Of a DNA stretch of 64,000 nucleotides, positions 4,024 to 46,651 are shown in pieces (positions within the stretch are counted from its first letter, which is position 1; every line of letters begins with the position of its first letter). Source of the stretch: Armatimonadota bacterium (GTDB lineage: Bacteria > Armatimonadota > SYMT01); NCBI GenBank assembly GCA_041690135.1, contig JAWLHY010000006.1:237964-301963 (forward strand), read 5' to 3'. Under the pieces are notes generated by a model. It ran no database searches. It was not told the DNA's origin and was given only the letters and a program-made list of their open reading frames with translations. Made by a program: the position numbers and the translations under genes.

Positions 4024-5028
4024 TCAGCCCAGGGTCACCGACTCTGCGGATACAGCGGAAACGAAGATGGCGTCGATCAGGCCCATGGAGGCCCGTAGCT
4101 CTTCTCCCGTCACGTTGGGCGCCGCTTCGCCCCGACATGCGGCGAGCAGATTATCGTAGAGCTCGTCGATCACGTTCACCGGCTCCAGCACCTCCGGCTC
4201 CGACATGCCGTCCGCCAGCAGCGTTATCGGACCGTTCACCTTCTCCGCCGTAATGCAGCCTTCCGTACCGATCACGTACCAGTGCGGGGCAGGTAGGCGA
4301 GAAAGGTTGCTCGCTTCGAGATAAGCCGTTGCCCCGCCCTCGAACCGGAGGAGGCAAGAGAAGTGGTCGTCCACTTCGTTGCTGAACCGGATCCCCCGGG
4401 CATCGGCGAACACCGTGCGGACCGGCTCTCCGATCAGGTGGAGTACCTGATCGCCGAGGTGGGGAGCATAGTCGTACACCATGCCCCCCCCGAACGCCCG
4501 CTGCACGCGCCAGGTGGGGTTGAACCCTTCAATTCCCCACGTGGCCCAGCCCATCCCGAACTGCGACCAGACGCGCCGTACGTGCTCCACCCGTCCAATG
4601 CGGCCGGCTCGCACCGCCTGAAGAATCGCACGATATTCGCCATCATAGCGGCGCGACTGGTGGCAGTGCATTACCACGCCGTTCGCCTGGGCCGCGGCAA
4701 GCATCGCTTCCGCTTCGCCGAGCGTCATCGCGAACGGTTTGTCCACGAAGACGTGCTTTCCGGCTTCCGCCGCCTGCACTGCCAGGTCGCGGTGGCTATT
4801 CGGTGGCGTGGTCACGATGACCAGGTCCACATTCGGGTCCGCCAGCAGATCCTCAAACCGCTCGTAAATGCGGGCGTCCGGGTTCTCCTCCTGGGCAGCG
4901 GTGCGGCGCACTTCCGTCGTGTCGCTCACCGCCACGAGCTTTGCCGTTTCGCGGGCGGTAACCCAGCGACGATGCGCGCCCGCACCGACTTTGCCGTAGC
5001 CCACGATCCCCACTCCGATGGGAGGCAT
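4024..5028 (-). CDS. Gfo/Idh/MocA-family NAD(P)-dependent oxidoreductase
   Basis: 334 aa. N-terminal Rossmann motif (GVGIVGYGKVGAGAH) and the family-typical EKP-like 'VFVDKPFA' segment. Confidence 0.9.
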   Translation of the reverse strand: MPPIGVGIVGYGKVGAGAHRRWVTARETAKLVAVSDTTEVRRTAAQEENPDARIYERFEDLLADPNVDLVIVTTPPNSHRDLAVQAAEAGKHVFVDKPFAMTLGEAEAMLAAAQANGVVMHCHQSRRYDGEYRAILQAVRAGRIGRVEHVRRVWSQFGMGWATWGIEGFNPTWRVQRAFGGGMVYDYAPHLGDQVLHLIGEPVRTVFADARGIRFSNEVDDHFSCLLRFEGGATAYLEASNLSRLPAPHWYVIGTEGCITAEKVNGPITLLADGMSEPEVLEPVNVIDELYDNLLAACRGEAAPNVTGEELRASMGLIDAIFVSAVSAESVTLG

Positions 5029-6285: not shown

Positions 6286-6984
6286 ATGCGAAGACGCGCA
6301 TTTACCTTGATCGAGCTTCTCGTGGTGATAGCCATTATCGCCATTCTTGCCGCCATCCTCTTTCCCGTTTTTGCACGCGCCCGTGAGTCCGCACGACGAT
6401 CTGCCTGCCTCAGCAACTGCAAGCAGATCGCCACGGCAGTCATGATCTACACGCAGGATTATGACGAGATCATGCCGATCGTCTCCTACGGCGGCCAGTA
6501 CCGGGCAGCCACCCAATGCCCCCACGGAGCGGGTTATACGTCCCGAAACGTGGACGGCCTGGATCGCTACCTGGTGCCGGTTCTGCTCCCCTACACGAAA
6601 AACGAGGGTATCTTCAAATGCCCGAATGCTCCGGCGGACCGGATGGGTGCGCCGGGCATCGCGCAGTTGTGGGGCCAGACCTACTGGTACTGGTGCATTC
6701 GGGATACCGACTCCCAGAACGCGACCCGCGCCTTCTTCCCTCCCAACGGCATCAAGTCGAACGTGTGCGGCGTATCGCTTGCCAGCTTCGCCGCGCCCGC
6801 GGACAAGGTGATCATGGCGGACGGAAACCCGGGCTGGCACACCCGCGGCGGGACGCAAATCGGAGTGCCCACGACGGAAACCGGTTACTCGAACGCGGTC
6901 TTCGCGGACGGCCACGCAAAAATGCTCACCTACGTGGGAGCTCCGGATTACTACAAAAAGGTCTGGACTGCGCGCGAGCCCTGA
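6286..6984 (+). CDS. prepilin-type N-terminal cleavage/methylation domain protein (type II secretion pseudopilin-like, DUF1559-like)
   Basis: [30 protein letters not shown]-terminus and a C-terminal 'FADGHAKML' motif. GGAGGA lies 7 nt upstream of the ATG at 6286. The ORF-track start at 6172 is a GTG further upstream. Confidence 0.85.
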
Positions 6985-7008
6985 CCCGAGTAGGGTCTGA
7001 AATCAGCG

Positions 7009-7044
7009 GCGAGCGACACCATGAGCTGGTGTCGCTCGCTTTTT
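7009..7044 (+). terminator. rho-independent terminator
   Basis: Perfect 12-bp stem (gcgagcgacacc / ggtgtcgctcgc) with a 7-nt loop, followed by T5. It sits directly after the stop at 6984. Confidence 0.8.
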
Positions 7045-7047
7045 CAC

Positions 7048-30840: not shown

Positions 30841-31698
30841 ATGGCCCAAACTTCAACCCGAATTCCAGAAGTGCTCGCCAAGCACGAGACCGCGCTTCTC
30901 GCCGCGTGGATAGGCGAACTCTCCGGCTCCATCCGACGACGGGATCTCATCAGCGAATCGGAGCTGCGGATCCAGTGTGAGGAGTTCATCCGCCTGGTGC
31001 GCGCGGCTTCCGAGAGCGGCAACATCAGTAACACTCAGGCTTCCGAGTGGGCGCCGGTCCGCGAAGTGCTGGGGGACCTGTCCCGCTCCCGTGCTCGGCA
31101 GGGCTTTACACCTCGTGAAACCGCCCTCTTCGTGTTCTCCTTCAAGAGCCCCCTTTTCAGCTGTTTGCGGGAGGAATACGGAAAGGACGCCGAAGGTCTC
31201 ACCGACGACATCTGGAACGCGACGCAACTTCTGGATGGCCTGGGGCTCTGGACGACAGAAGTCTTCCAGCAGACCCGGGAGGAAGTGATCGCCCGCCAGC
31301 AAGAGGAACTGATGGAGCTCTCCACGCCCGTCGTGAAGCTCTGGGACGGCATTCTCGCACTTCCGCTCATCGGCACACTCGACAGCGCCCGGACGCAGAC
31401 GGTGATGGAGAACTTGCTCCAGCGGATCGTGGAAACCGAGGCGGAAGTCGCTATCATCGACATCACCGGCGTGCCCACGGTAGACACCCTCACCGCCCAG
31501 CACCTGATCAAGGCAATCACCGCTGCCCGGTTGATGGGCGCGGATTGCATCATCAGCGGCATCCGCCCGCAGATCGCGCAAACTATCGTGCACCTGGGAG
31601 TTGACCTGGGTGAGGTGGTCACCAAGTCCAGCCTCGCCGACGCCTTCCAGTTGGCCCTGAAGCGCCGCGGCGTCGCGCTGCAGCGGCCTGCCGTCTGA
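30841..31698 (+). CDS. rsbR: RsbR-like stressosome sensor protein (N-terminal globin-like sensor domain + STAS)
   Basis: 285 aa. 'ELSTPVVKLWDGILALPLIGTLDSARTQ' opens a STAS domain. The N-terminus 'ETALLAAWIGEL' is RsbR-N-like. Confidence 0.85.
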   Translation: MAQTSTRIPEVLAKHETALLAAWIGELSGSIRRRDLISESELRIQCEEFIRLVRAASESGNISNTQASEWAPVREVLGDLSRSRARQGFTPRETALFVFSFKSPLFSCLREEYGKDAEGLTDDIWNATQLLDGLGLWTTEVFQQTREEVIARQQEELMELSTPVVKLWDGILALPLIGTLDSARTQTVMENLLQRIVETEAEVAIIDITGVPTVDTLTAQHLIKAITAARLMGADCIISGIRPQIAQTIVHLGVDLGEVVTKSSLADAFQLALKRRGVALQRPAV

Positions 31699-31711
31699 GG
31701 GGTAAAGTACC

Positions 31712-32068
31712 ATGGACCGGATTCCCATCCTTCGCATGGGCCCCTTCCTGCTCGTCACGATCCAGGTGGACATGCATGATCAACTGGCGTTGACACTGCA
31801 GGATGACCTGACCAATAAGATCTCCGAAACCGGCGCCAAAGGTGTGCTGATCGATATCTCCTCTCTAGAGATGGTCGACTCGTTTATCGGGCGGGTTATT
31901 GCCAATATTGCGGCGATGGCACGCGTCCTCGACGCCCAAACGGTGGTCGTGGGGATGCAGCCTGCCGTGGCCATCACCCTCGTGGAGCTCGGGCTCTCAC
32001 TGCCGGGAGTGCGTACCGCGCTGAACGTGGAAAAGGGAATGGATCTCCTTCGGACCGCACTCGGCTAG
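31712..32068 (+). CDS. rsbS: RsbS-like STAS-domain stressosome scaffold protein
   Basis: 118 aa, single STAS domain. '[10 protein letters not shown]' contains the expected phosphorylatable Ser context. Confidence 0.85.
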
Positions 32069-32084
32069 ACGGGAACGCCAGAGA

Positions 32085-32492
32085 ATGCTTGCCGTCAAGA
32101 GAGAAGAGACCTATCCCATCCGCTCCGACGCGGACGTCGTGCTGGCCCGCCAGGCCGTCCGCAAGGCGGCTACCAGTCTCAGCTTCAGCCTGGTGGACCA
32201 GACCAAAATCGTCACTGCTGCGAGCGAACTCGCGCGCAACGCCGTCATCCACGGTGGAGGCGGCCAGATGCGTCTTGAAGTAGTGGAACAGGGATTCCGC
32301 AAGGGCCTGCGCCTGGTGTTCGAAGACCAGGGGCCGGGCATTGCGGATATCGACCTGGCATTGAAGGACGGGTATACCACGGGCAGCGGATTGGGTATGG
32401 GACTGAGTGGGTCCCGCCGGCTGGTCAATGAGTTCGAAATCGATTCGCGGCCGGGCGAAGGCACGCGTGTCACTATCATCCGCTGGAAATAG
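32085..32492 (+). CDS. rsbT: RsbT-like anti-sigma regulatory factor (Ser/Thr kinase, HATPase_c_2)
   Basis: 135 aa with 'ELARNAVIHGGGG', 'DQGPGI' and 'GSGLGMGLSGSRRL' motifs. Confidence 0.85.
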   Translation: MLAVKREETYPIRSDADVVLARQAVRKAATSLSFSLVDQTKIVTAASELARNAVIHGGGGQMRLEVVEQGFRKGLRLVFEDQGPGIADIDLALKDGYTTGSGLGMGLSGSRRLVNEFEIDSRPGEGTRVTIIRWK

Positions 32493-32505
32493 CAGTGAAG
32501 CAGTA

Positions 32506-33534
32506 ATGAGAGAATCCGTGGTCCTGCCGATGCAGGAGCCGAGCCAGGTGGGCGAGGCGAGAAGAATCGCCGTGACCCTGGCCGACCGCGCCGGCTTCAG
32601 CGAAGAACGGCAGGGCCGCGTGGCCCTCATCGTTACGGAAGCCGGCACCAATCTCGTCCGCCATGCACACAATGGCGAGCTGATCCTCACCCAATTGCGG
32701 CAATCCGGCGTGGCGGGCCTGGAGATGCTGGCCCTCGACCAGGGACCGGGTATCGAGCGTCTTGATGAATGTATGCGCGACGGCTTCTCCACGGCAGGAA
32801 CTGCCGGAGGAGGCATGGGAGCCATCCGCCGGATGTCGGACCAGTTCGATCTCTACACCCAACCCGGCGTAGGCACAGCGGTCGTGGCGCGCGTCTGGCA
32901 AAGCGCTCCAACGTCACGGCCCGCCGGGAATACCTCCGGGTTCGAGATCGGAGGGCTGAGTGCACCCCTCACCGGGGAAAGCCGCTGTGGCGATGCCTGG
33001 GCGTGTTGGGCAGATGAGCACCGCGCCGTTGTCATGGTAGCCGATGGCCTGGGACATGGTCCGGCCGCGGCGGATGCCTCTGCGGAGGCGGTCGAATGCT
33101 TCTACGATCGCCCCGAATTATCACCGGACGAAATCCTGGAAGCCGTGCATCTGGCACTACGCGGCACTCGCGGTGCAGCGGTAGCGGTCTGCGAGATCCG
33201 TAGGACGCAAGGCAACGTTCGCTTTGCGGGGGTGGGCAATATCGGCGGCGTAATCGTCCGCCCCGAGGATTCGCAGCACATGGTTTCCCACCATGGCACC
33301 ATCGGACACCTGGCGCGCCGGTTTCAATCCTTCACCTACGACTGGACGCCCGATTCCCTGCTCCTCATGTATTCCGATGGATTGACCTCCCAATGGCGGC
33401 TGGATCGTTATCCTGGCTTGATCGCCCGACATCCAAGCCTCATCGCGGGTACACTGTACCGGGACTTCAAACGAGAACGTGACGACACTTCGATAGTTGC
33501 CGTCCGTTATTCGTCCCCACGACCAAACTTTTAG
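32506..33534 (+). CDS. RsbT/RsbW-like ATP-binding domain fused to SpoIIE/PP2C-type phosphatase
   Basis: 342 aa. The N-terminal half parallels RsbT (EAGTNLVRHA…DQGPGI…GGGMGAIRR). The C-terminal half has 'GDAW…VADGLGHG' and 'LLMYSDGL' PP2C/SpoIIE motifs. I chose the ATG at 32506. Confidence 0.8.
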   Translation: MRESVVLPMQEPSQVGEARRIAVTLADRAGFSEERQGRVALIVTEAGTNLVRHAHNGELILTQLRQSGVAGLEMLALDQGPGIERLDECMRDGFSTAGTAGGGMGAIRRMSDQFDLYTQPGVGTAVVARVWQSAPTSRPAGNTSGFEIGGLSAPLTGESRCGDAWACWADEHRAVVMVADGLGHGPAAADASAEAVECFYDRPELSPDEILEAVHLALRGTRGAAVAVCEIRRTQGNVRFAGVGNIGGVIVRPEDSQHMVSHHGTIGHLARRFQSFTYDWTPDSLLLMYSDGLTSQWRLDRYPGLIARHPSLIAGTLYRDFKRERDDTSIVAVRYSSPRPNF

Positions 33535-33536
33535 CC

Positions 33537-35705
33537 ATGCCCGCTCGCCGGACTCGTATCCTCGTACTGAAAATCGCAAGTGAACCCGATGTGGTGCTCG
33601 CCCGCCAGCGGGCCCGCCAGATTGCGGGAGCCCTGAGTTTCGACCCTCTCGACCAGACCCGGATCGCTACAGCCGTCTCCGAGATTGCGAGGAACGCCTA
33701 CCAGTACGCCGGCGGCGGCACCGTCGAATACGCGGTGGAAGGTCAGAACCCCACCCTTTTCGAGGTGCGCATCCAGGACCAGGGCCCGGGTATCACCGAG
33801 CGCGCGAGGCGTGGGCGCGGTGATTGGAGCACCGGAGGATTGGGCATCGGCATCAGCGGCAGCCGGGCGCTGATGGATCGCTTCGAGATCGAGTCAGTTC
33901 CAGGAAAGACCACCATTCTGCTGGGGAAGTATCTCCCCCACGCTGCCCCCCCGGTCACCAATAGTCTGCTCAACAAGCTGTCCGGGGAGTTGACGGCGGC
34001 CCGTGATGGCGGCGCGTTACAAGAGGCACTTCAACAGAACCATGAGCTTCTTCAGGCCCTGGAAGATTTGTGCGCCCGCCAGTCGGAGATCGAGCAACTA
34101 AACGCGGAACTCGACGACACCAATCGCGGCGTGATGGCGCTGTACAGCGAACTCGAGGAGAAGGCCGAGTACCTGCGGCGGATCAACGACCAGAAGAGCC
34201 GGTTCTTCTCCAACATGAGCCATGAGTTCCGTACGCCGCTGAATGCCATTCTGAGTCTTTCCCGGCTGCTCCTGGACCGCATCGATGGAGAACTCACCCC
34301 GGAACAGGAAAAGCAGGTTACTTTCATCCGGCGTTCGGCCGAGGGACTTTCGGAACTGGTCAACGATCTCCTCGACATGGCCAAGGCCGAAGCGGGCAAG
34401 ATCACCATTCGCCCCAGCGACTTCAGTGTCGATTCGCTTTTCGGCACGGTGCGCGGAATGCTGCGCCCCATCATCAGCCCTGGACGTGTTGAGTTGTCCT
34501 TTGAAGATCCGGCCGGGATCTCCAACCTGCACACCGACGAAGGGAAACTGTCTCAGATCCTCCGCAACTTCATTTCCAACGCGCTCAAGTTCACGGTGGA
34601 AGGCTCGGTTCGCGTCACTGCCAGTATGGGGCCGGCCGATACCGTCGTCTTTTCGGTCATTGATACGGGCATTGGGATCGCCCCGGAACAACAAGAGCGG
34701 GTTTTCGAAGAATTCGCGCAGGTCGAGGGTCCCATGCAGCACCGGTTCCGCGGTACCGGCCTGGGGCTGCCGCTCTCCAAGAAGCTTGCGGAACTGCTGG
34801 GGGGCACGGTCTCCCTGCATTCCGAGCCGGGAAAGGGTTCTACTTTCACCGTTCGAGTGCCCCGTATCTACTCCGGGCCCGCCGCCGTAGCCTATGTGCC
34901 GGAATCAGGATGGCAGATCGACCCAACCCGGACCCCGGTGCTGATCGTGGAGAGTGATCCGGAGACCCTCTTCACCTATGAGACTATGCTGCGTGGCACC
35001 GGCTTCCAGGGGATTCCGGCGAGGAGCATCCAGGACGCCCGCAGAGCCATACGGGACGTACATCCGGCCGTCGTCGTGGTGGCACACCTCGAGGGCGCGA
35101 GCACCGCCGCCGACCTGGTGCGAGACTTCAAGGCCGACGCCCGCTACCGGGCGACTCCCATTCTTGCCGTGTCGCCACCCGAGTTCCACGAGATGCTGCG
35201 TCTATCCGGCGTGGACGGCTTTCTCAAGGGGCACTCGGATCGGGAGGGTTTCATCAAGCAACTCCAACGGGTAACCCAGCGCACCCGTGACGACGTCATT
35301 CTCGCCATCGACGACGATCCGGTGGCCCGCTACCTCATGAAGCGCCTCCTGTCGGATACGCGTTATGAGTATGTCGAGGCCACCGGGGGTCGAGAGGGCC
35401 TTCGCATCGCGCGGATCGAGAAGCCTCAGGTGGTCCTGCTCGATCTCTCCATGCCGGACATGTCCGGGGCGGAAGTCCTGACTGAATTCCACAATGACGA
35501 CGAACTCCGCGACGTACCTGTGTTGATCGTTACGGGATTGCCCCTCAGCGACGACGAACGGGACGAGCTCAGTGGCCGGTCAGCAGGGATTCTCTCCAAG
35601 CAGGCTCTATCACGCGAGGCACTCGTGAATGCCATTCGAGAGGTTCTGGAAGCCGGCGCGGGGGCGCACGGGTCAGGCGCCACGCGGGAGGCCGCCGGTG
35701 TCTGA
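33537..35705 (+). CDS. hybrid sensor histidine kinase: RsbT-like domain, coiled coil, HisKA, HATPase and two receiver-like domains
   Basis: 722 aa. The N-terminus parallels RsbT (EIARNAYQYAGGG…DQGPGI…GLGIGISGSRAL). H-box 'FFSNMSHEFRTPLN' and G-boxes 'DTGIGI' and 'GTGLGL' are present. The C-terminal REC domain has 'LLDLSMPDMSG'. Confidence 0.85.
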   Translation: MPARRTRILVLKIASEPDVVLARQRARQIAGALSFDPLDQTRIATAVSEIARNAYQYAGGGTVEYAVEGQNPTLFEVRIQDQGPGITERARRGRGDWSTGGLGIGISGSRALMDRFEIESVPGKTTILLGKYLPHAAPPVTNSLLNKLSGELTAARDGGALQEALQQNHELLQALEDLCARQSEIEQLNAELDDTNRGVMALYSELEEKAEYLRRINDQKSRFFSNMSHEFRTPLNAILSLSRLLLDRIDGELTPEQEKQVTFIRRSAEGLSELVNDLLDMAKAEAGKITIRPSDFSVDSLFGTVRGMLRPIISPGRVELSFEDPAGISNLHTDEGKLSQILRNFISNALKFTVEGSVRVTASMGPADTVVFSVIDTGIGIAPEQQERVFEEFAQVEGPMQHRFRGTGLGLPLSKKLAELLGGTVSLHSEPGKGSTFTVRVPRIYSGPAAVAYVPESGWQIDPTRTPVLIVESDPETLFTYETMLRGTGFQGIPARSIQDARRAIRDVHPAVVVVAHLEGASTAADLVRDFKADARYRATPILAVSPPEFHEMLRLSGVDGFLKGHSDREGFIKQLQRVTQRTRDDVILAIDDDPVARYLMKRLLSDTRYEYVEATGGREGLRIARIEKPQVVLLDLSMPDMSGAEVLTEFHNDDELRDVPVLIVTGLPLSDDERDELSGRSAGILSKQALSREALVNAIREVLEAGAGAHGSGATREAAGV

Positions 35706-40994: not shown

Positions 40995-41590
40995 CCCCTC
41001 AGGCCCACCGGCGCTCGACGCCCGGTCTCCACGTTCAACCACAACCCCATGTGCCGGCCCATCCACCGCGCCCTGCTACCCGATAGCCCGGTACGACCCA
41101 GCCCGCGGGAGGCCCAGGTACGTCTCCATCCATCCAACGTAGAACCACCGGTGACAAGTTACGCCCGAGCCTCACCGTCCCTGAGGAAAGTGCCGTACCC
41201 TGGAGTTCGCGATAGGCCTCCCAAAGTACTGCATCCGAGATGCGCAACCTGCCCAGGGAACATTCCGTTTGTAATACCGGTAAGATGAGTATGTAAGGAT
41301 ATGGCAACGGCCCGGCAACCGCCGTGGGCTCAACCCTTTCCAGATCCAAAATCAGGTGCCGAGCTCCGCGGCAGCGGAGGCGGGGGACCCGTGGTAGTTG
41401 GGGCATATTCCGGAACACCCGGAACGAGGACTCTTCCCCTCGCGCCCGTCAGCTAACCTCGTAGGCACGGCGCGAAGAGTCACCTACACCTAACGACTTC
41501 CCATGCCGGAACGTCGTCCTGTTTTTGGCACTCCTCCCGCCGTTCCTCCCTCGCATCTTCTCCTGCCGCGCGAGCCGGCGGGAGTGAACG

Positions 41591-42619
41591 ATGTCAAGCA
41601 CGCAATTCCGCGGACCCCGGCCGGCTAAGTGGCAAGGCTGGGCCGCATTCTGTTCCATTACCTTGCTCGCCGGTGGCGCCACCCACTCGCTCTGGTTGCC
41701 GCGAATCACCATGGCGGGCGACAGTCTTCGCGAGACGCCGAAGCCCGCTGCCCAAAGACCCGCTGCCAAAGACAAGAGCCAGGCCACCGACAGGACCCGG
41801 GTGAGCGGCAAGTCAAAAGCCGGGGCCACGAAGTCACCGAAGAAAACCGCGAAGACGGCTAAGAAAGCTGCGACCTCACCGGTGGCCTACCGGAAGATCA
41901 TCGTCCGCGGGGTACCGATGCACGTGGTTCAGGTGGACCCTCGCAATCCCAATGTCCGGCTCGGAGTGGTCACACCGAAGTACGGAATTGGGGCCCGGGA
42001 GTCGTGGTCGGACCTCGTCGACCGTGCGCGGCCGGCAGCGGCCATCACCGGCACGTACTTTTGCACTTCGTCCGGCATTCCGGTCGGAAGTATCATCGCC
42101 GCGGGCAGAACGGTCCATCGCGGTGGAATCGGCACCGCCTTCACCTTCAGCCCGGCGAAGGGGGCGCAAGTCGTTACCTGCCTCCCTAACCGCGGCTATG
42201 ACTGGAAGGGGGCCGACACGGTGCTGCGCGCCGGACCCCGCCTGTTGACCGCCGGCCAGCGCACCCTATGGCCCGAAGCCGAAGGGTTCAAGGACCCGGC
42301 CGTCTATCAGCGCAAGCGCCGCACGGCCGTGGCTGTGACGAAGCACGGAAAGCTTCTGTTGGTGGCCGTGAACAAGCCGGTGCTGCTGCGGACCCTGGCC
42401 GATTCCCTGCGGGATCTCGGAGCGGTGGACGCTATGTGTCTCGACGGCGGTGGATCGACCGGTCTCTACACCCGCGGCAAAACCCAAATCAAGCCGGATC
42501 GTCCTCTCACCAACCTGCTTGTCGTTTACGACTCGCCAGCGCGCTACGCACAGCAGGTGGGGCGCCTCAACCCGACCGATACGCAGATCGTGCGGCTGGA
42601 GGCGAGCCCGAGTGGTTAG
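41591..42619 (+). CDS. phosphodiester glycosidase family (DUF2233-like) protein, membrane-anchored
   Basis: 342 aa with an N-terminal TM and a Lys/Ala-rich linker. 'AAITGTYF', 'RTAVAVTKHGKLLLVAV' and 'AMCLDGGGSTGLY' resemble this family. Confidence 0.7.
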   Translation: MSSTQFRGPRPAKWQGWAAFCSITLLAGGATHSLWLPRITMAGDSLRETPKPAAQRPAAKDKSQATDRTRVSGKSKAGATKSPKKTAKTAKKAATSPVAYRKIIVRGVPMHVVQVDPRNPNVRLGVVTPKYGIGARESWSDLVDRARPAAAITGTYFCTSSGIPVGSIIAAGRTVHRGGIGTAFTFSPAKGAQVVTCLPNRGYDWKGADTVLRAGPRLLTAGQRTLWPEAEGFKDPAVYQRKRRTAVAVTKHGKLLLVAVNKPVLLRTLADSLRDLGAVDAMCLDGGGSTGLYTRGKTQIKPDRPLTNLLVVYDSPARYAQQVGRLNPTDTQIVRLEASPSG

Positions 42620-42715: not shown

Positions 42716-42979
42716 GGGCGCGGAGAGGCTGGTAACCACAGGCCGACGCCACGTGGCGTTGCGGCAGCTCTGCGACCCGGACGCTCACACAGCAATACAA
42801 CTGTGCCCTAAGACCGACCGTTGGTCAGTTTAGGTGCGAGGGCAAGAATCTGATGGCGCAAGCGACCTGACCCTTTGGTCGCTGAACAATGAACCGAAAC
42901 GGCTCCGGTTGCCAACTTCCTTCCTGGCCTCTCGGCAGGTAAGACGTTGGCAACCGGAACTTGAGTGCCAGGGGACCCC

Positions 42980-44473
42980 TCAGGGCTTTTCCGCCAGGAG
43001 AGCCTTAACCTGGTCGAGCACGCCCTGCTCGTTGAAGCCGGCTTCCAGGTAGCGCAGCACGCCTTTCCGGTCGATGACTGCGACCGTGGGGAAAGCCTGC
43101 ACCTGGTAAGCCTGGGAGGCCACATCGTCCAGGTCCATCATGACCGGATAGGTCACCCCGTGCTTGTCCACGAACTCGCGGGCCATGCGCATCGGATCGG
43201 AGCGCTCACCGGCGTTGACGCCGAACACCATCAAACCCTGCTCGCGATACTTGTTCCAGATCTCTTTTTCCATACGCGGAGCCTCCGCGTTGCAGGGTCC
43301 TCACCAGGAGGCGAACCAGTTCAGCAGCACCACCTTACCGCGGTGCTCTGAAAGCTTCGCCTCTTTTCCATCGAGAGTTTTGAGCTGGACCTCCGGCGCG
43401 GGCTTGCCGACCGAAGCGAAGCGCGCGGCCTGCTTTTCGTGCAGGGCCTTCACTTCCGCCAGGGTGAGTTCCCGATCCCCCTGTTTGTAACGGACCGGAG
43501 GATCGAATCGCCCGTCCGCCACCAGGGTGCCCGCGGGGAAATCGACCGTCAACTCTTCCGGGCGGACCGGGACGTTGATCTGCGAGCCTTCGATCTTGTA
43601 GGTGGAGAGCATGCCCCGGTTCAGGGCCCCGGTGATGTAGATGAGGTGTTCGACGCTCTTCAGGGCAAGGCCGCTCTTGGTGACCTCGTGCGTGATCTTC
43701 AGCTCCTGCCCTCGCGCCACCGGGCCCTGGGGCGTAACGGTATCGCCCGCCATCATCAGCTTCTCCAGGGCATAGCGCGGCGCGGTCCGGAGAATCGCGG
43801 TCACCCGGTCTTCACCCCGCGTTCCGCTGAGGGTCATCAGACCCTTCGAAGGCTTGGCCGAGGACCAGGTGATCCCTTCGAGCAGGTCGGCACCCCGCAT
43901 CACCAGCAAACGGTCCGGCGCTGTCTGGTCCGGTTGCGGGCCTACCTGGCCCACGCGCTCCAGCTTTTCGGCACGGCCAGTCTCCTGGAGCACCCGGCCC
44001 AGGTCCTTCGCCACACCGACGAGGTAGTGGGCTTGGGTGTCCCCCTGGGCATCCATCACCGTGACATCACGCTTCCAATCGTCACCGGAAAAGAGGAGGT
44101 ATTCGCGCCGCTGGGTACCGACCGGTGCCTTCGCAATGGCCGATCGCACAGTCGCACGCTGGGTGCCCTCCGGCAGATCGACCTGGCGTTGTGCCACGTG
44201 CAGCGAGATGCGACCGCTCTTGACCCGAGCCTCATCCTTCTTGAGTTGAGCTACGGCCTTTTCCGCAAGAGCAGATCCCTTGGGCGAATTGGCCGATTTA
44301 GGCGCCGCGGGCCTGGCGGGCGGTTTGGCAGCGGTTGCCCTGGTGGCGGCAGACTTTTTGGCCGCGGGAGGGGCCAGGGTAGCCGACACCGGCTGGCACC
44401 CCACGCTGGCGGCCGTGATTCCGGCCGCGGCCACCGCTCCGAGAGCACAGCGGATCCGGGTCTTCTCGTTCAT
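42980..44473 (-). CDS. predicted selenoprotein: lipoprotein with C-terminal TlpA/ResA-like thioredoxin domain; in-frame UGA (43303-43301) replaces the first Cys of W-C-G-P-C
   Basis: ORFs 43301-44473 and 42980-43273 share one frame, separated by one TGA plus 9 sense codons. The joined sequence reads …GKVVLLNWFASW-U-GPCNAEAPRMEKEIWNKYREQGLMVFGVN…, a canonical TlpA-type redox-motif context. The N-terminus has a lipobox-like 'AASVGC'. The ATG overlaps the larC stop (ATGA). Confidence 0.75.
43274..43290 (-). promoter_or_regulatory. candidate bacterial SECIS hairpin
   Basis: On the mRNA: UGA-GGACCCUGCA-ACGCGG(A)-GGC-(U)CCGCGU. This is a 6-7-bp perfect stem starting 10 nt after the UGA. The apical loop starts with GG. 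Confidence 0.6.
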
Positions 44474-45900
44474 TGCATCTCCTTATCGAGGAGGCCCCAC
44501 GCGGCGGCCAGTGCGGCGGCCTGGACCTTCTTGACCGGCGCCCCGGTCGCAGCCGAACATTTACGGCAATCCTCGTATTCGGGGGTTGCGGTGCGGATCT
44601 CACCATCCTGCCGCGCAACCTTCACCCTGACTTCTCCATACGGTGTTTCCACCGCAAGCCATTCCCGTGGGAGGCAATCCCGGCTCCAGCTCGAATACCG
44701 CACCCCAAATGTTGTGGTCTCCTGGAATAGAACCCGGGTGAGTACTTCGCGTTTCGCCGGATCACACAGCACACTCAGGGTAAGGGCCGGCCGGTTCTTC
44801 TTCATCTGGATCGGCGTCCACCACACGTCCAGCGCCCCGGCGGCGAAAAGCCCCTCCATCACCGGCTCGAACAACTGCGGGGACTGATCGTCGATATTCG
44901 CCTCGATCAACGTGACCTGCGTGGGCTCGGACTCTACCTCGGCCAGCTCCCCGATCACCACCCGGAGCAGGTTGGGGAACGGAAAGTTTTTCATCCCTGC
45001 CCCGTACCCGATTTCGTGTACGGTGAGCGGCGGCAGGTCCCCGAACTCTGGGGACAACGTACTGGCGAGGGCAGCCCCGGTGGGGGTGACCAGCTCTCCT
45101 TCCACGTCCACGTGGCGTAGGGGGCAGCCTTTGAGTAACTCCATGGTGGCCGGGGGCGGCACCGGCATCATTCCGTGCGCGCACCTCACGAAGCCATGCC
45201 CCGTCGGCAACGGTGAGCACACCACGCGCTCCACTCTTAGCAGGTGCAATGCATAGACGGAGCCCACCACATCCACAATGCTGTCTACAGCGCCCACTTC
45301 GTGGAAATGAACTGCCTCCAGGGTGGACCCGTGGACGGCCGCTTCGGCCTCCGCCAACCGTCGATAGACCCGTTCGGCATCCCGCTTCACCCCCTCCGGT
45401 AACCCACTCGCACGGATCAGGGCCGCTACCTCAGTGAAGGTGCGGGTGCCGGCGTGAGCATTGGGCATTGGGCACTCAGACGTTGGGCGATCAGGCGTTG
45501 GGGACTGGGGATCGTGATCGTGATCGTGATCGTGATCGGCTTCCCTTCTCTCCTCGCCGTGAGAATGGCTATGGCCGTGGGAATGCTGCGTGTGCTCGTG
45601 GGTGTGGTGCGAGTGTTCGTGGGTGTGGGTGTGGCCGGAGGGTTCTGGGAGGGGGGCGTCGGTGGGTGGGAGGCGCAGGAGGGGCGCGGAGCCGGCGACC
45701 TCGCCGTGGACCAGGACCTCCACATGCGTCGCGGCAATGCCGGATTTCCAGGCGCGCCTGACTTCGAGGTCCCAGCCGGGCAGGTCGAGGGTGTGCAGGC
45801 CTTCCACCAACAACCCCGCATCCACCCCCGCGTCCAGCAGGGCACCCAGCATCATGTCGCCGCTGATTCCACCGATGCAATCCAGGTAGGCTACTCGCAT
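44470..45900 (-). CDS. larC: LarC, nickel-pincer cofactor biosynthesis nickel-insertion protein (DUF111 family)
   Basis: 476 aa with 'MRVAYLDCIGGISGDMMLGALLDAGV', 'HFHEVGAVDSIVDVVG', 'ELVTPTGAAL' and 'MKKNRPA'. A long His/Asp-rich insert is present (HTHTHEHSHHTHEHTQHSHGHSHSHG…HDHDHDHD). Confidence 0.9.
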   Translation of the reverse strand: MRVAYLDCIGGISGDMMLGALLDAGVDAGLLVEGLHTLDLPGWDLEVRRAWKSGIAATHVEVLVHGEVAGSAPLLRLPPTDAPLPEPSGHTHTHEHSHHTHEHTQHSHGHSHSHGEERREADHDHDHDHDPQSPTPDRPTSECPMPNAHAGTRTFTEVAALIRASGLPEGVKRDAERVYRRLAEAEAAVHGSTLEAVHFHEVGAVDSIVDVVGSVYALHLLRVERVVCSPLPTGHGFVRCAHGMMPVPPPATMELLKGCPLRHVDVEGELVTPTGAALASTLSPEFGDLPPLTVHEIGYGAGMKNFPFPNLLRVVIGELAEVESEPTQVTLIEANIDDQSPQLFEPVMEGLFAAGALDVWWTPIQMKKNRPALTLSVLCDPAKREVLTRVLFQETTTFGVRYSSWSRDCLPREWLAVETPYGEVRVKVARQDGEIRTATPEYEDCRKCSAATGAPVKKVQAAALAAAWGLLDKEMQ

Positions 45901-45901
45901 A

Positions 45902-46651
45902 TTAATCCCGGCAGATGAGGTGCGCCACGTACCCGGCGCCGAAGCCGTTGTCGATGTTGACGACCACTACCCCCGTCGCGCACGAATTGAGCATGCCCAG
46001 AAGCGCGGCCACTCCCTGGAAGCTGGCGCCGTAGCCCACGCTGGTGGGGACGGCGATCACCGGCACTTCCACGAGGCCACCAACCACGCTGGGCAGAGCG
46101 CCCTCCATTCCGGCGACAACCACCAGGGCCTTCGCTTTGACCAGGGCATCCCGTGCGGCGAGAATCCGATGGAGACCGGCCACTCCGCAGTCGTACAACC
46201 GCTCCACCCGACTCCCTAACGCTTCCGCAGTAACAGCGGCTTCCTCCGCCACCGGTTGGTCGGAGGTCCCCGCGCTCACCACGAGAACATGGGGAGCATC
46301 CGCGGGTGGTTCCGGACGAGGCTCCGCTCGCAACTCCACGATCCGTGCGGGGGAATGCAAAACGGCTTCCGGAAAGATCTCCGCAACTGCGGCAAACTGT
46401 TCCGGGGAGATGCGCGTACCCAGGACGAACCCGTGCCGCTCGTAGAGCCGTGCCGCGATGGCGACCACCTGGTCCGCCGTCTTGCCGGCGCAGTAGATCA
46501 CCTCGGGCACGCCCTTGCGGAGGTGGCGGTGCGTGTCCACACGCGCGAAACCCAGGTCTTCGTAGGGCGCCCACTTGAGCGCTGCCACCGCATCTTCGAT
46601 GGTGAGGATGCCGGACTGGACGCCGGCCAGGATCTCTCGAATGTTGTCCAC
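45902..46651 (-). CDS. larB: LarB, pyridinium-3,5-biscarboxylic acid mononucleotide synthase (AIR-carboxylase-like)
   Basis: 249 aa with '[14 protein letters not shown]', '[15 protein letters not shown]', 'DCGVAGLHR', '[16 protein letters not shown]' and 'NIDNGFGAG'. It starts with GTG at 46651. Confidence 0.9.

Follow-up and report, generated by a model that had tools for sequence, protein, structure and literature searches.

The E. coli fdhF-type selenocysteine insertion sequence (SECIS) has as its minimal element a 17-nt upper stem-loop, located about 11 nt after the UGA. Proteins that carry selenocysteine (Sec, U) in a UxxC motif within TlpA-like, peroxiredoxin (Prx)-like or thiol:disulfide-interchange folds already figure in the catalogue of prokaryotic selenoproteins, which comprises more than 110 families (PMC13188914), in agreement with an earlier note on the DNA studied here, which had regarded U-x-x-C oxidoreductases as an established class of bacterial selenoproteins. 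We analyzed a stretch of 64,000 nt from an Armatimonadota bacterium (assembly GCA_041690135.1, contig JAWLHY010000006.1, positions 237,964 to 301,963 of the forward strand), the whole of which is referred to below as the window, and concentrated on a minus-strand gene at 44473-42980 that contains an in-frame UGA. From its sequence we strongly predict that this gene undergoes SECIS-directed recoding with insertion of Sec, and that it encodes an exported two-domain selenoprotein.

A single UGA interrupts a thioredoxin-fold domain

The upstream part of the gene is a 390-codon minus-strand open reading frame (ORF; 44473-43301), which ends ...GKVVLLNWFASW-TGA. This TGA, at 43303-43301, is followed by nine sense codons (GGA CCC TGC AAC GCG GAG GCT CCG CGT) and then by an ATG at 43273, and the frame downstream of the TGA stays open from this ATG to a stop at 42982-42980. 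Across 44473-42980 the TGA is the sole interruption of the minus-strand frame. The earlier note had described two minus-strand ORFs in one frame, split by a TGA and nine sense codons, and every coordinate it gave was exact. The complete recoded coding sequence (42980-44473, minus strand, including the terminal stop TGA at 42982-42980) is a single frame whose joined product of 497 residues aligns end to end with homologues of 460-477 amino acids. In this product the UGA (43301-43303, minus strand) is residue 391, the predicted Sec391 at the nucleophilic position of U-G-P-C, and the junction reads W-[UGA]-G-P-C-N-A-E-A-P-R. The resolving Cys394 of the UxxC motif (43292-43294, minus strand), a TGC by direct reading, is TGC or TGT in all Sec and Cys forms of the family.

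Matches to the Pfam families AhpC-TSA and Redoxin (E about 1e-24) cover residues 355-484 and thereby straddle the TGA, and a true stop at this codon would truncate the thioredoxin fold one residue short of its active site. When the window was scanned for further coding frames split by a TGA, with filters on G+C content at third and second codon positions (GC3 and GC2), this gene was the only one found; a second candidate, the TGA at 21313-21311, was rejected since it proved to lie between two adjacent genes that share a frame.

The UGA aligns with cysteine and recurs in distinct loci

The joined sequence, with U replaced by C, was searched against 5.8 billion proteins and gave 27 close full-architecture relatives. 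About 22 of these, with lengths of 460-477 amino acids, read WFASW-C-(G/P)-P-C (alignment A1), and five (P0022, P0024, P0025, P0026 and P0032; 348-365 amino acids, no Pfam domain) stop exactly at ...WFASW. On the contigs of those five, the stop is followed by an AhpC-TSA ORF of 94-96 amino acids (81 in L005), which in four cases lies 27 nt past the stop. The closest relative of the window protein is itself a Cys form (P0002, 64% identity). Homologues of the joined protein show Cys or TGA in the column of the UGA, as the earlier note had anticipated when it placed the UGA on the nucleophilic Cys of a TlpA/ResA-like UxxC motif, a placement borne out by the Sec/Cys pairing and by the other TGA loci.

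Besides the window, 11 other distinct loci have a TGA at this codon (L001, L002, L004, L005, L007-L012 and L017; L003 is identical to L002). These loci were drawn from JGI, ENA, Logan and NCBI assemblies of different samples, reach down to 28-33% protein identity, and all run on in frame after the TGA as G/A-x-C-x-A/V-E-A-P. A scan of genome contigs retrieved one true family member, L017 (JACQGL010000151.1), which belongs to an Armatimonadetes metagenome-assembled genome (MAG), the only named genome with a family member; it has the TGA too.

These results bear directly on the idea that the TGA is a sequencing or assembly error, is bypassed by SECIS-independent near-cognate read-through (for instance by tRNA-Trp), or is a reassigned codon. 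A single-base change suffices to turn TGC or TGG into TGA, and the source is probably a metagenome-assembled contig. However, because the TGA was found independently in 11 other distinct loci, sequencing error is excluded, and a TGC or TGT at 43301-43303, which the earlier note had raised as a possible outcome of resequencing, is very unlikely. Moreover, the residue aligned with the UGA in homologues is always Cys and never Trp or Gly, and UGA is not reassigned, since TGA terminates 16 of the 47 predicted genes of the window. Error, read-through and reassignment would also leave unexplained why only the Sec forms carry the hairpin described below. We therefore regard this group of explanations as effectively refuted by the independent TGA loci, with a negligible chance of being correct.

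A second possibility is that the UGA is a true stop in a split gene or a pseudogene, which would yield a 390-amino-acid LolA-like protein and perhaps a separately initiated thioredoxin fragment of 97 amino acids. Database entries do annotate such a split, as a product of 348-390 amino acids plus an AhpC-TSA remnant of 81-97 amino acids, and the window offers an ATG 27 nt past the TGA. Yet the same split falls at the same codon in all the distinct loci listed above, and the would-be downstream start is Leu or Ile (TTA, TTG, CTA or ATC) in five of them (L005, L010, L011, L012 and L017); on these codons foundered also the suggestion, made in the earlier note as a way to disprove its prediction, that the homologues might be two separate genes. 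Furthermore, the nine codons between TGA and ATG are conserved in protein, resolving Cys included, and the substitutions beyond the TGA remain mainly at third codon positions (for example 7/6/17 in the comparison with L001). The non-start codons in five orthologues, the conserved nine codons and the persisting third-position bias make a split gene very unlikely, and a pseudogene would not keep a covarying hairpin specific to the TGA forms. Even when split gene or pseudogene, sequencing error and read-through are taken together, their combined probability is very small.

A hairpin specific to the Sec forms follows the UGA

Beginning 10 nt past the UGA, the transcript contains an inverted repeat, ACGCGGA-GGC-UCCGCGU (43274-43290, minus strand), with a 7-bp stem (ACGCGGA/UCCGCGU) and an apical GGC loop, which has a folding energy of -9.7 kcal/mol when folded alone. 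The earlier note had reported a perfect hairpin at 43290-43274, ten nt after the UGA and with a G-starting loop, and these coordinates are exact. Published criteria for bacterial SECIS (bSECIS) elements comprise a loop of 3-9 nt, a stem of 4-16 bp, a G within the first two loop positions, a UGA-to-loop distance of 16-37 nt and a minimum free energy of -7.5 kcal/mol or lower (PMC13188914). The window hairpin lies within these limits in loop length (3 nt, in the pattern A-GGC-U), stem length, loop opening (G-G), UGA-to-loop distance (17 nt) and energy. By itself it is only suggestive when set against chance, because comparable hairpins (perfect, of at least 7 bp, with a G-initiated loop at the right distance) follow 13 of the 1,451 TGA trinucleotides in the window (0.9%). 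It is far beyond chance once the family is considered, because TGA and hairpin core recur in the 11 other distinct loci. The core GCGGAGGCUCCGC is present in every TGA form, with A-E-A-P-R/Q written as GCG GAG GCU CCG CGN or CAG, and over the 285 kb of the window and the collected loci it occurs 13 times, each time 12 nt past a family TGA and nowhere else. Five Cys-form orthologues (L006 and L021-L024, the gene for P0002 among them) encode the same AEAP through GCC/GCG, GAA/GAG, GCG and CCC/CCU/CCG, and the hairpin is found in none of the five.

Covariation of the hairpin was scored in an alignment of 12 sequences (A2). Here, 98.8% of stem cells were paired, three of the seven pairs showed changes on both sides, and the covariation score of the stem was reached by none of 500 shuffles. 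Pair 1 changes from A-U to C-G on both sides, and also occurs as G-U; in L002 the C-G of pair 2, and in L007 that of pair 4, is replaced by U-A, the latter change turning an Ala codon into a Val codon. As a control, the 3' partner was slid by 1-3 columns, upon which pairing fell to 21-57% and no two-sided changes were left. The identification of the hairpin as a bacterial SECIS, put forward in the earlier note, is thus strongly supported by its sequence features: it fits the published bSECIS criteria, it covaries, and it is specific to the Sec forms.

Points against selenocysteine, and insertion of cysteine as an alternative

A number of observations count against the prediction of a SECIS-directed selenoprotein. 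The hairpin is short (7 bp with a 3-nt loop), the 71-nt region around it folds no better than shuffled sequences (z = 0.17), and four of the seven stem pairs are invariant, the stem being partly constrained by the conserved A-E-A-P codons. Rfam returned no SECIS family, either over the window at the gathering threshold or over 43200-43360 at E values up to 10, where it gave noise only; to our knowledge, bacterial SECIS elements are generally without family models, so that a missing Rfam match is expected. Neither selA, selB, selD nor tRNA-Sec was found in the window and 24 loci, a search (tblastn with the E. coli proteins for SelA, SelB and SelD) that is uninformative because these 285 kb come from many genomes and make up a tiny share of any one of them. 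ARAGORN, run on the window and 11 loci, detected no tRNA and no tRNA-Sec. The final point on this side is that tRNA-ReC-like tRNAs, reported to read SECIS-flanked UGA as Cys and present in five of five Armatimonadota genomes with UXXU hydrogenases, could insert Cys at the UGA (PMC13582414).

The taxonomic origin of the window matters for this last point. Its CarB protein is 84% identical to a protein from a named Armatimonadota MAG, and 16 of 17 organism-named matches were to Armatimonadota or Armatimonadetes. MAGs of this phylum are reported to contain Sec-type [NiFeSe] hydrogenases together with canonical SelC (PMC13582414), and the source lineage plausibly uses Sec. At the same time, Armatimonadota genomes with the UXXU motif may translate UGA as Cys (PMC13582414). 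It is therefore conceivable that decoding of the UGA depends on SECIS and SelB as we propose, and that a tRNA-ReC (SelC*)-type tRNA inserts Cys, or a mixture of Sec and Cys set by the supply of selenium; in that case only the decoding would be unusual, and the protein itself a normal CxxC TlpA-like one. The interleaving of Sec and Cys forms in the family tree (see below) would fit two nearly interchangeable states. Nevertheless, the UXXU Armatimonadota genomes also carry canonical SelC, and tRNA-ReC is tied to genomes with the UXXU motif and occurs in only about 2.3% of other Sec-type genomes (PMC13582414). We consider Cys insertion by such a tRNA a real but unlikely alternative, and retain Sec as the predicted residue.

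Domain architecture of the joined protein

From N- to C-terminus, the joined protein is predicted to consist of a signal peptide, a disordered Pro/Ala linker, a LolA-like beta-barrel and a ResA/TlpA-like domain with the motif W-U-G-P-C. The signal peptide (44396-44473, minus strand) ends at Cys26 in a lipobox-like A-S-V-G-C, identified with a PROSITE-style rule; the lipobox pattern sought at the end of signal peptides was [LVI][ASTVI][GAS]C. All family members have an N-terminal signal-peptide-like region; the lipobox rule matches the window protein and none of 26 homologues, which carry AxA-type signal peptides. Predicted export is conserved in the family, and the putative lipidation is not. 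The earlier note had called the protein a lipoprotein, and while the lipobox pattern is indeed there, it is not a feature of the family. The linker that follows (residues 27-59; 44297-44395, minus strand) is rich in Pro, Ala and Lys and of low complexity in all homologues. An AlphaFold model built with the family alignment had a mean predicted local distance difference test (pLDDT) score of 86.8, with residues 1-52 (pLDDT below 50) disordered.

The C-terminal domain, which spans the UGA (residues 355-484; 43022-43411, minus strand), was assigned as a ResA/TlpA-like thioredoxin fold (cd02966) with Pfam and Foldseek. It scored 86.9 bits against AhpC-TSA (PF00578; cutoff 26) and 86.8 bits against Redoxin (PF08534; cutoff 26.6), and its superposition on Bacillus subtilis ResA gave a template modelling (TM) score of 0.88-0.90 at about 30% identity and a root mean square deviation (rmsd) of about 1.9 Å. 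The active-site context W-U-G-P-C-N-A-E matches W-C-x-x-C and a downstream Glu, with U for the first C.

The N-terminal domain (residues 60-345; 43439-44296, minus strand) had no match in Pfam or NCBIfam. Full-length Foldseek results were dominated by matches to the thioredoxin (Trx) domain, and hence the N-terminal domain was modelled separately, with a pLDDT of 95 and a predicted TM score (pTM) of 0.89. Foldseek against the PDB matched this model to LolA, LolB, LprG, VioE and DUF1329 (E 1e-5 to 1e-3, probability 1.0), with TM scores of 0.5-0.6 over the target and 0.35-0.43 over the query and an rmsd of 6-9 Å. The model thus suggests an open beta-barrel with a LolA-like fold, a resemblance at the level of fold class only. 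The description of this domain in the earlier note as belonging to no recognised family therefore stands for its sequence and probably does not hold for its fold.

Family size, redox-dead paralogues and the history of the Sec position

An exhaustive HMMER search with the N-terminal domain against 1.84 billion representatives recovered 41 clusters at 50% identity, whose named members are from Armatimonadota only. The clusters that could be classified comprise nine Sec forms truncated at ...WFASW, about six Cys forms and about ten redox-dead paralogues that have lost the CxxC motif, reading for example WFNSRSRY, WVAADSTP or SxxS. In five loci a dead paralogue, again with a LolA-like N-terminal domain and a Trx fold but with WFNSRSRY, WVAADSTP or WFSTASAR at the lost motif (SxxS or SxxC in P0200 and P0202), lies in tandem directly upstream of the Sec or Cys gene (L001 8605-9960; L002 8611-9978; L004 1289-2698; L022 8619-9965; L023 7692-9041), and from its sequence it looks like a redox-dead partner. 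It is absent from the window, where the paralogue queries matched only the Sec gene, and from the sister locus L021.

In a rough, midpoint-rooted neighbour-joining tree, Sec and Cys forms were interleaved, and the deepest branches, as well as the most scattered ones, were those of Sec forms. Two further loci (L011 2893-3450 and L012 2923-3480) encode single-domain Sec-TlpA-like proteins of about 170-185 amino acids with the same UGA context and an identical SECIS core, the latter with a good lipobox (LISAC). That these single-domain proteins share the SECIS core implies that the Sec domain with its SECIS either predates the two-domain architecture or is the more mobile of the two.

These data tentatively suggest that Sec is the ancestral and still predominant state of the family, with Cys forms having arisen by repeated Sec-to-Cys reversion and decay of the SECIS, possibly buffered by tRNA-ReC. 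The deep and scattered position of the Sec forms, their larger number among the 50%-identity representatives and the identical SECIS core favor such a history; the roughness of the tree limits it, as does the small distance of three or four synonymous changes between Cys-form AEAP codons and a SECIS, so that convergent or repeated gain of the SECIS, instead of loss of Sec, is possible. Replacement of Sec by Cys in bacteria is considered rare and is documented mainly for FdhA and SelD (PMC13188914). We hold Sec ancestry to be a doubtful, tentative scenario. If it were true, tRNA-ReC could read the SECIS-flanked UGA as Cys under selenium scarcity, and an exported redox enzyme would be naturally decoded in two ways, with Sec or Cys as conditions dictate. 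Whichever direction the changes took, a compact invariant SECIS that overlies a constrained A-E-A-P peptide, with matched Cys forms without SECIS, makes the Sec-form and Cys-form pair a clean natural contrast for studying gain and loss of SECIS elements and possibly decoding by tRNA-ReC.

Genomic context

On the minus strand, the genes run in the order pyrB, pyrC-like, carA, S26 peptidase, carB, nucleotidyltransferase, GFO/IDH/MocA oxidoreductase, larB-like (AIRC), larC-like (Ni_insertion) and Sec gene. The stop of the larC-like gene (44470-45900, minus strand; Pfam PF01969, 477 bits) and the Sec gene's start overlap in the 4 nt ATGA (44470-44473), and the two genes are probably co-transcribed. 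The order larB, larC, (paralogue), TlpA-like gene was found in six loci, namely the window (44470-46651, minus strand), L001, L002, L021, L022 and L023. This conserved synteny, with its 4-nt ATGA overlaps, ties cytoplasmic nickel-pincer cofactor genes to an exported redox protein. The window LarC has a long insert rich in His and Asp. Neither larE nor larA was seen near the Sec gene locus, and no genes for cytochrome c maturation, Cox/Sco, Msr or CcdA/DsbD adjoin the Sec gene.

Convergent with the Sec gene is a gene for a NAGPA (phosphodiester glycosidase) domain protein (41591-42619), which is preceded by a cyclic di-AMP (ydaO/yuaA) riboswitch (41347-41481, plus strand; 71 bits against a gathering score of 38) and is syntenic in L001, L021 and L022 too. 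About 20 nt past the stop of the Sec gene lies an inverted repeat (42904-42958) whose 23-nt arms are 87% complementary and 9 nt apart; it may be a terminator-like hairpin, lacking a T tract, that is common to the two convergent genes. The background scan for SECIS-like structures also picked up perfect hairpins of 12-15 bp at 6982-7046 and at 4026, right after the TGA stops of convergent or terminal genes, and these are most likely ordinary terminators. Elsewhere in the window (30841-35705, plus strand), a hybrid histidine kinase/response regulator comes after an RsbR/RsbS/RsbT-like module (RsbRD_N plus STAS, STAS, HATPase_c), and the region looks like a stressosome-type signalling cluster.

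Proposed mechanism and comparison with known systems

In the mechanism that we propose, the 17-nt hairpin starting 10 nt after the UGA would act as the SECIS and recruit SelB with Sec-tRNA(Sec), and the ribosome would insert Sec at the UGA instead of terminating. Once exported across the cytoplasmic membrane and matured, the protein would use Sec391 to attack the disulfide of a substrate, and Cys394 would resolve the resulting selenenylsulfide. The oxidized U-x-x-C could then be reduced again by a membrane electron shuttle of the CcdA/DsbD type, as in ResA and TlpA. The LolA-like domain would possibly bind a hydrophobic or lipidated partner, or serve for docking. Database entries wrongly list the gene and its orthologues as two products, a "hypothetical protein" and a short "peroxiredoxin" fragment, and recognition of the recoding would restore an exported redox enzyme of 497 residues. 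It would also give Armatimonadota, which have been little studied and are known almost wholly from MAGs, a defined subfamily of selenoproteins. It would not change what is known of Sec decoding or of the function of UxxC oxidoreductases, and a specialist would not be surprised by it.

As regards the SECIS, the window hairpin shares with the fdhF-type element and the Zhang/Gladyshev bSECIS consensus (PMC13188914) a length of 17 nt and a G-G at the start of the loop. It differs from the fdhF type in lacking a bulged U, in its 3-nt loop and in its unrelated sequence, and, at the level of the family, in the lack of an extended lower stem in most orthologues and of an Rfam model.

The N-terminal domain has in common with the lipoprotein- and lipid-binding barrels of LolA, LolB and LprG a curved antiparallel sheet with helices, but it is about 100 residues larger, shows about 10% identity and has no sequence family. 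Literature searches on selenoproteins with LolA or TlpA returned no description of an architecture that combines a LolA-like with a TlpA-like domain.

The C-terminal domain resembles B. subtilis ResA (PDB 1su9, 1st9 and 2h1b) and Bradyrhizobium TlpA in its fold, in the context W-C-x-P-C-x-x-E, with the Glu six residues after the first Cys or Sec, and in a signal peptide that implies export, and differs from them by Sec in place of the nucleophilic Cys and by the additional LolA-like domain. By analogy, the window protein probably works like ResA and TlpA, reducing disulfides with electrons supplied by CcdA/DsbD. It is not an ortholog of ResA, TlpA or DsbE/CcmG, because its scores fall below the NCBIfam cutoffs (99.8 against 170 for ResA, NF002854; 44.9 against 230 for NF047696 and 56.9 against 123 for TIGR00385, the TlpA and DsbE/CcmG models).

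Among selenoprotein-specific models, the best match was NF041054, a ResA-like WAxxUGC selenoprotein that likewise has a ResA/TlpA-like fold and Sec in the active-site region. The window protein is not a member, with 52.2 bits against a cutoff of 300, W-F-A-S-W-U-G-P-C in place of WAxxUGC, and a different domain architecture. With the catalogued UxxC TlpA-like families it shares Sec at the N-terminal Cys of CxxC, a fold of the TlpA/AhpC-TSA type, a SECIS within the coding sequence just downstream and abundant Cys homologues; those families were also discovered through the logic of Sec/Cys pairs. One of them may include L011 and L012, the Sec forms with a single domain. The window protein is set apart from their descriptions by a LolA-like domain of about 290 residues before the Trx domain. 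Thus, the window gene most likely encodes a selenoprotein of the known UxxC kind, within which it belongs to a small and new subfamily of two-domain proteins that are mostly Sec forms.

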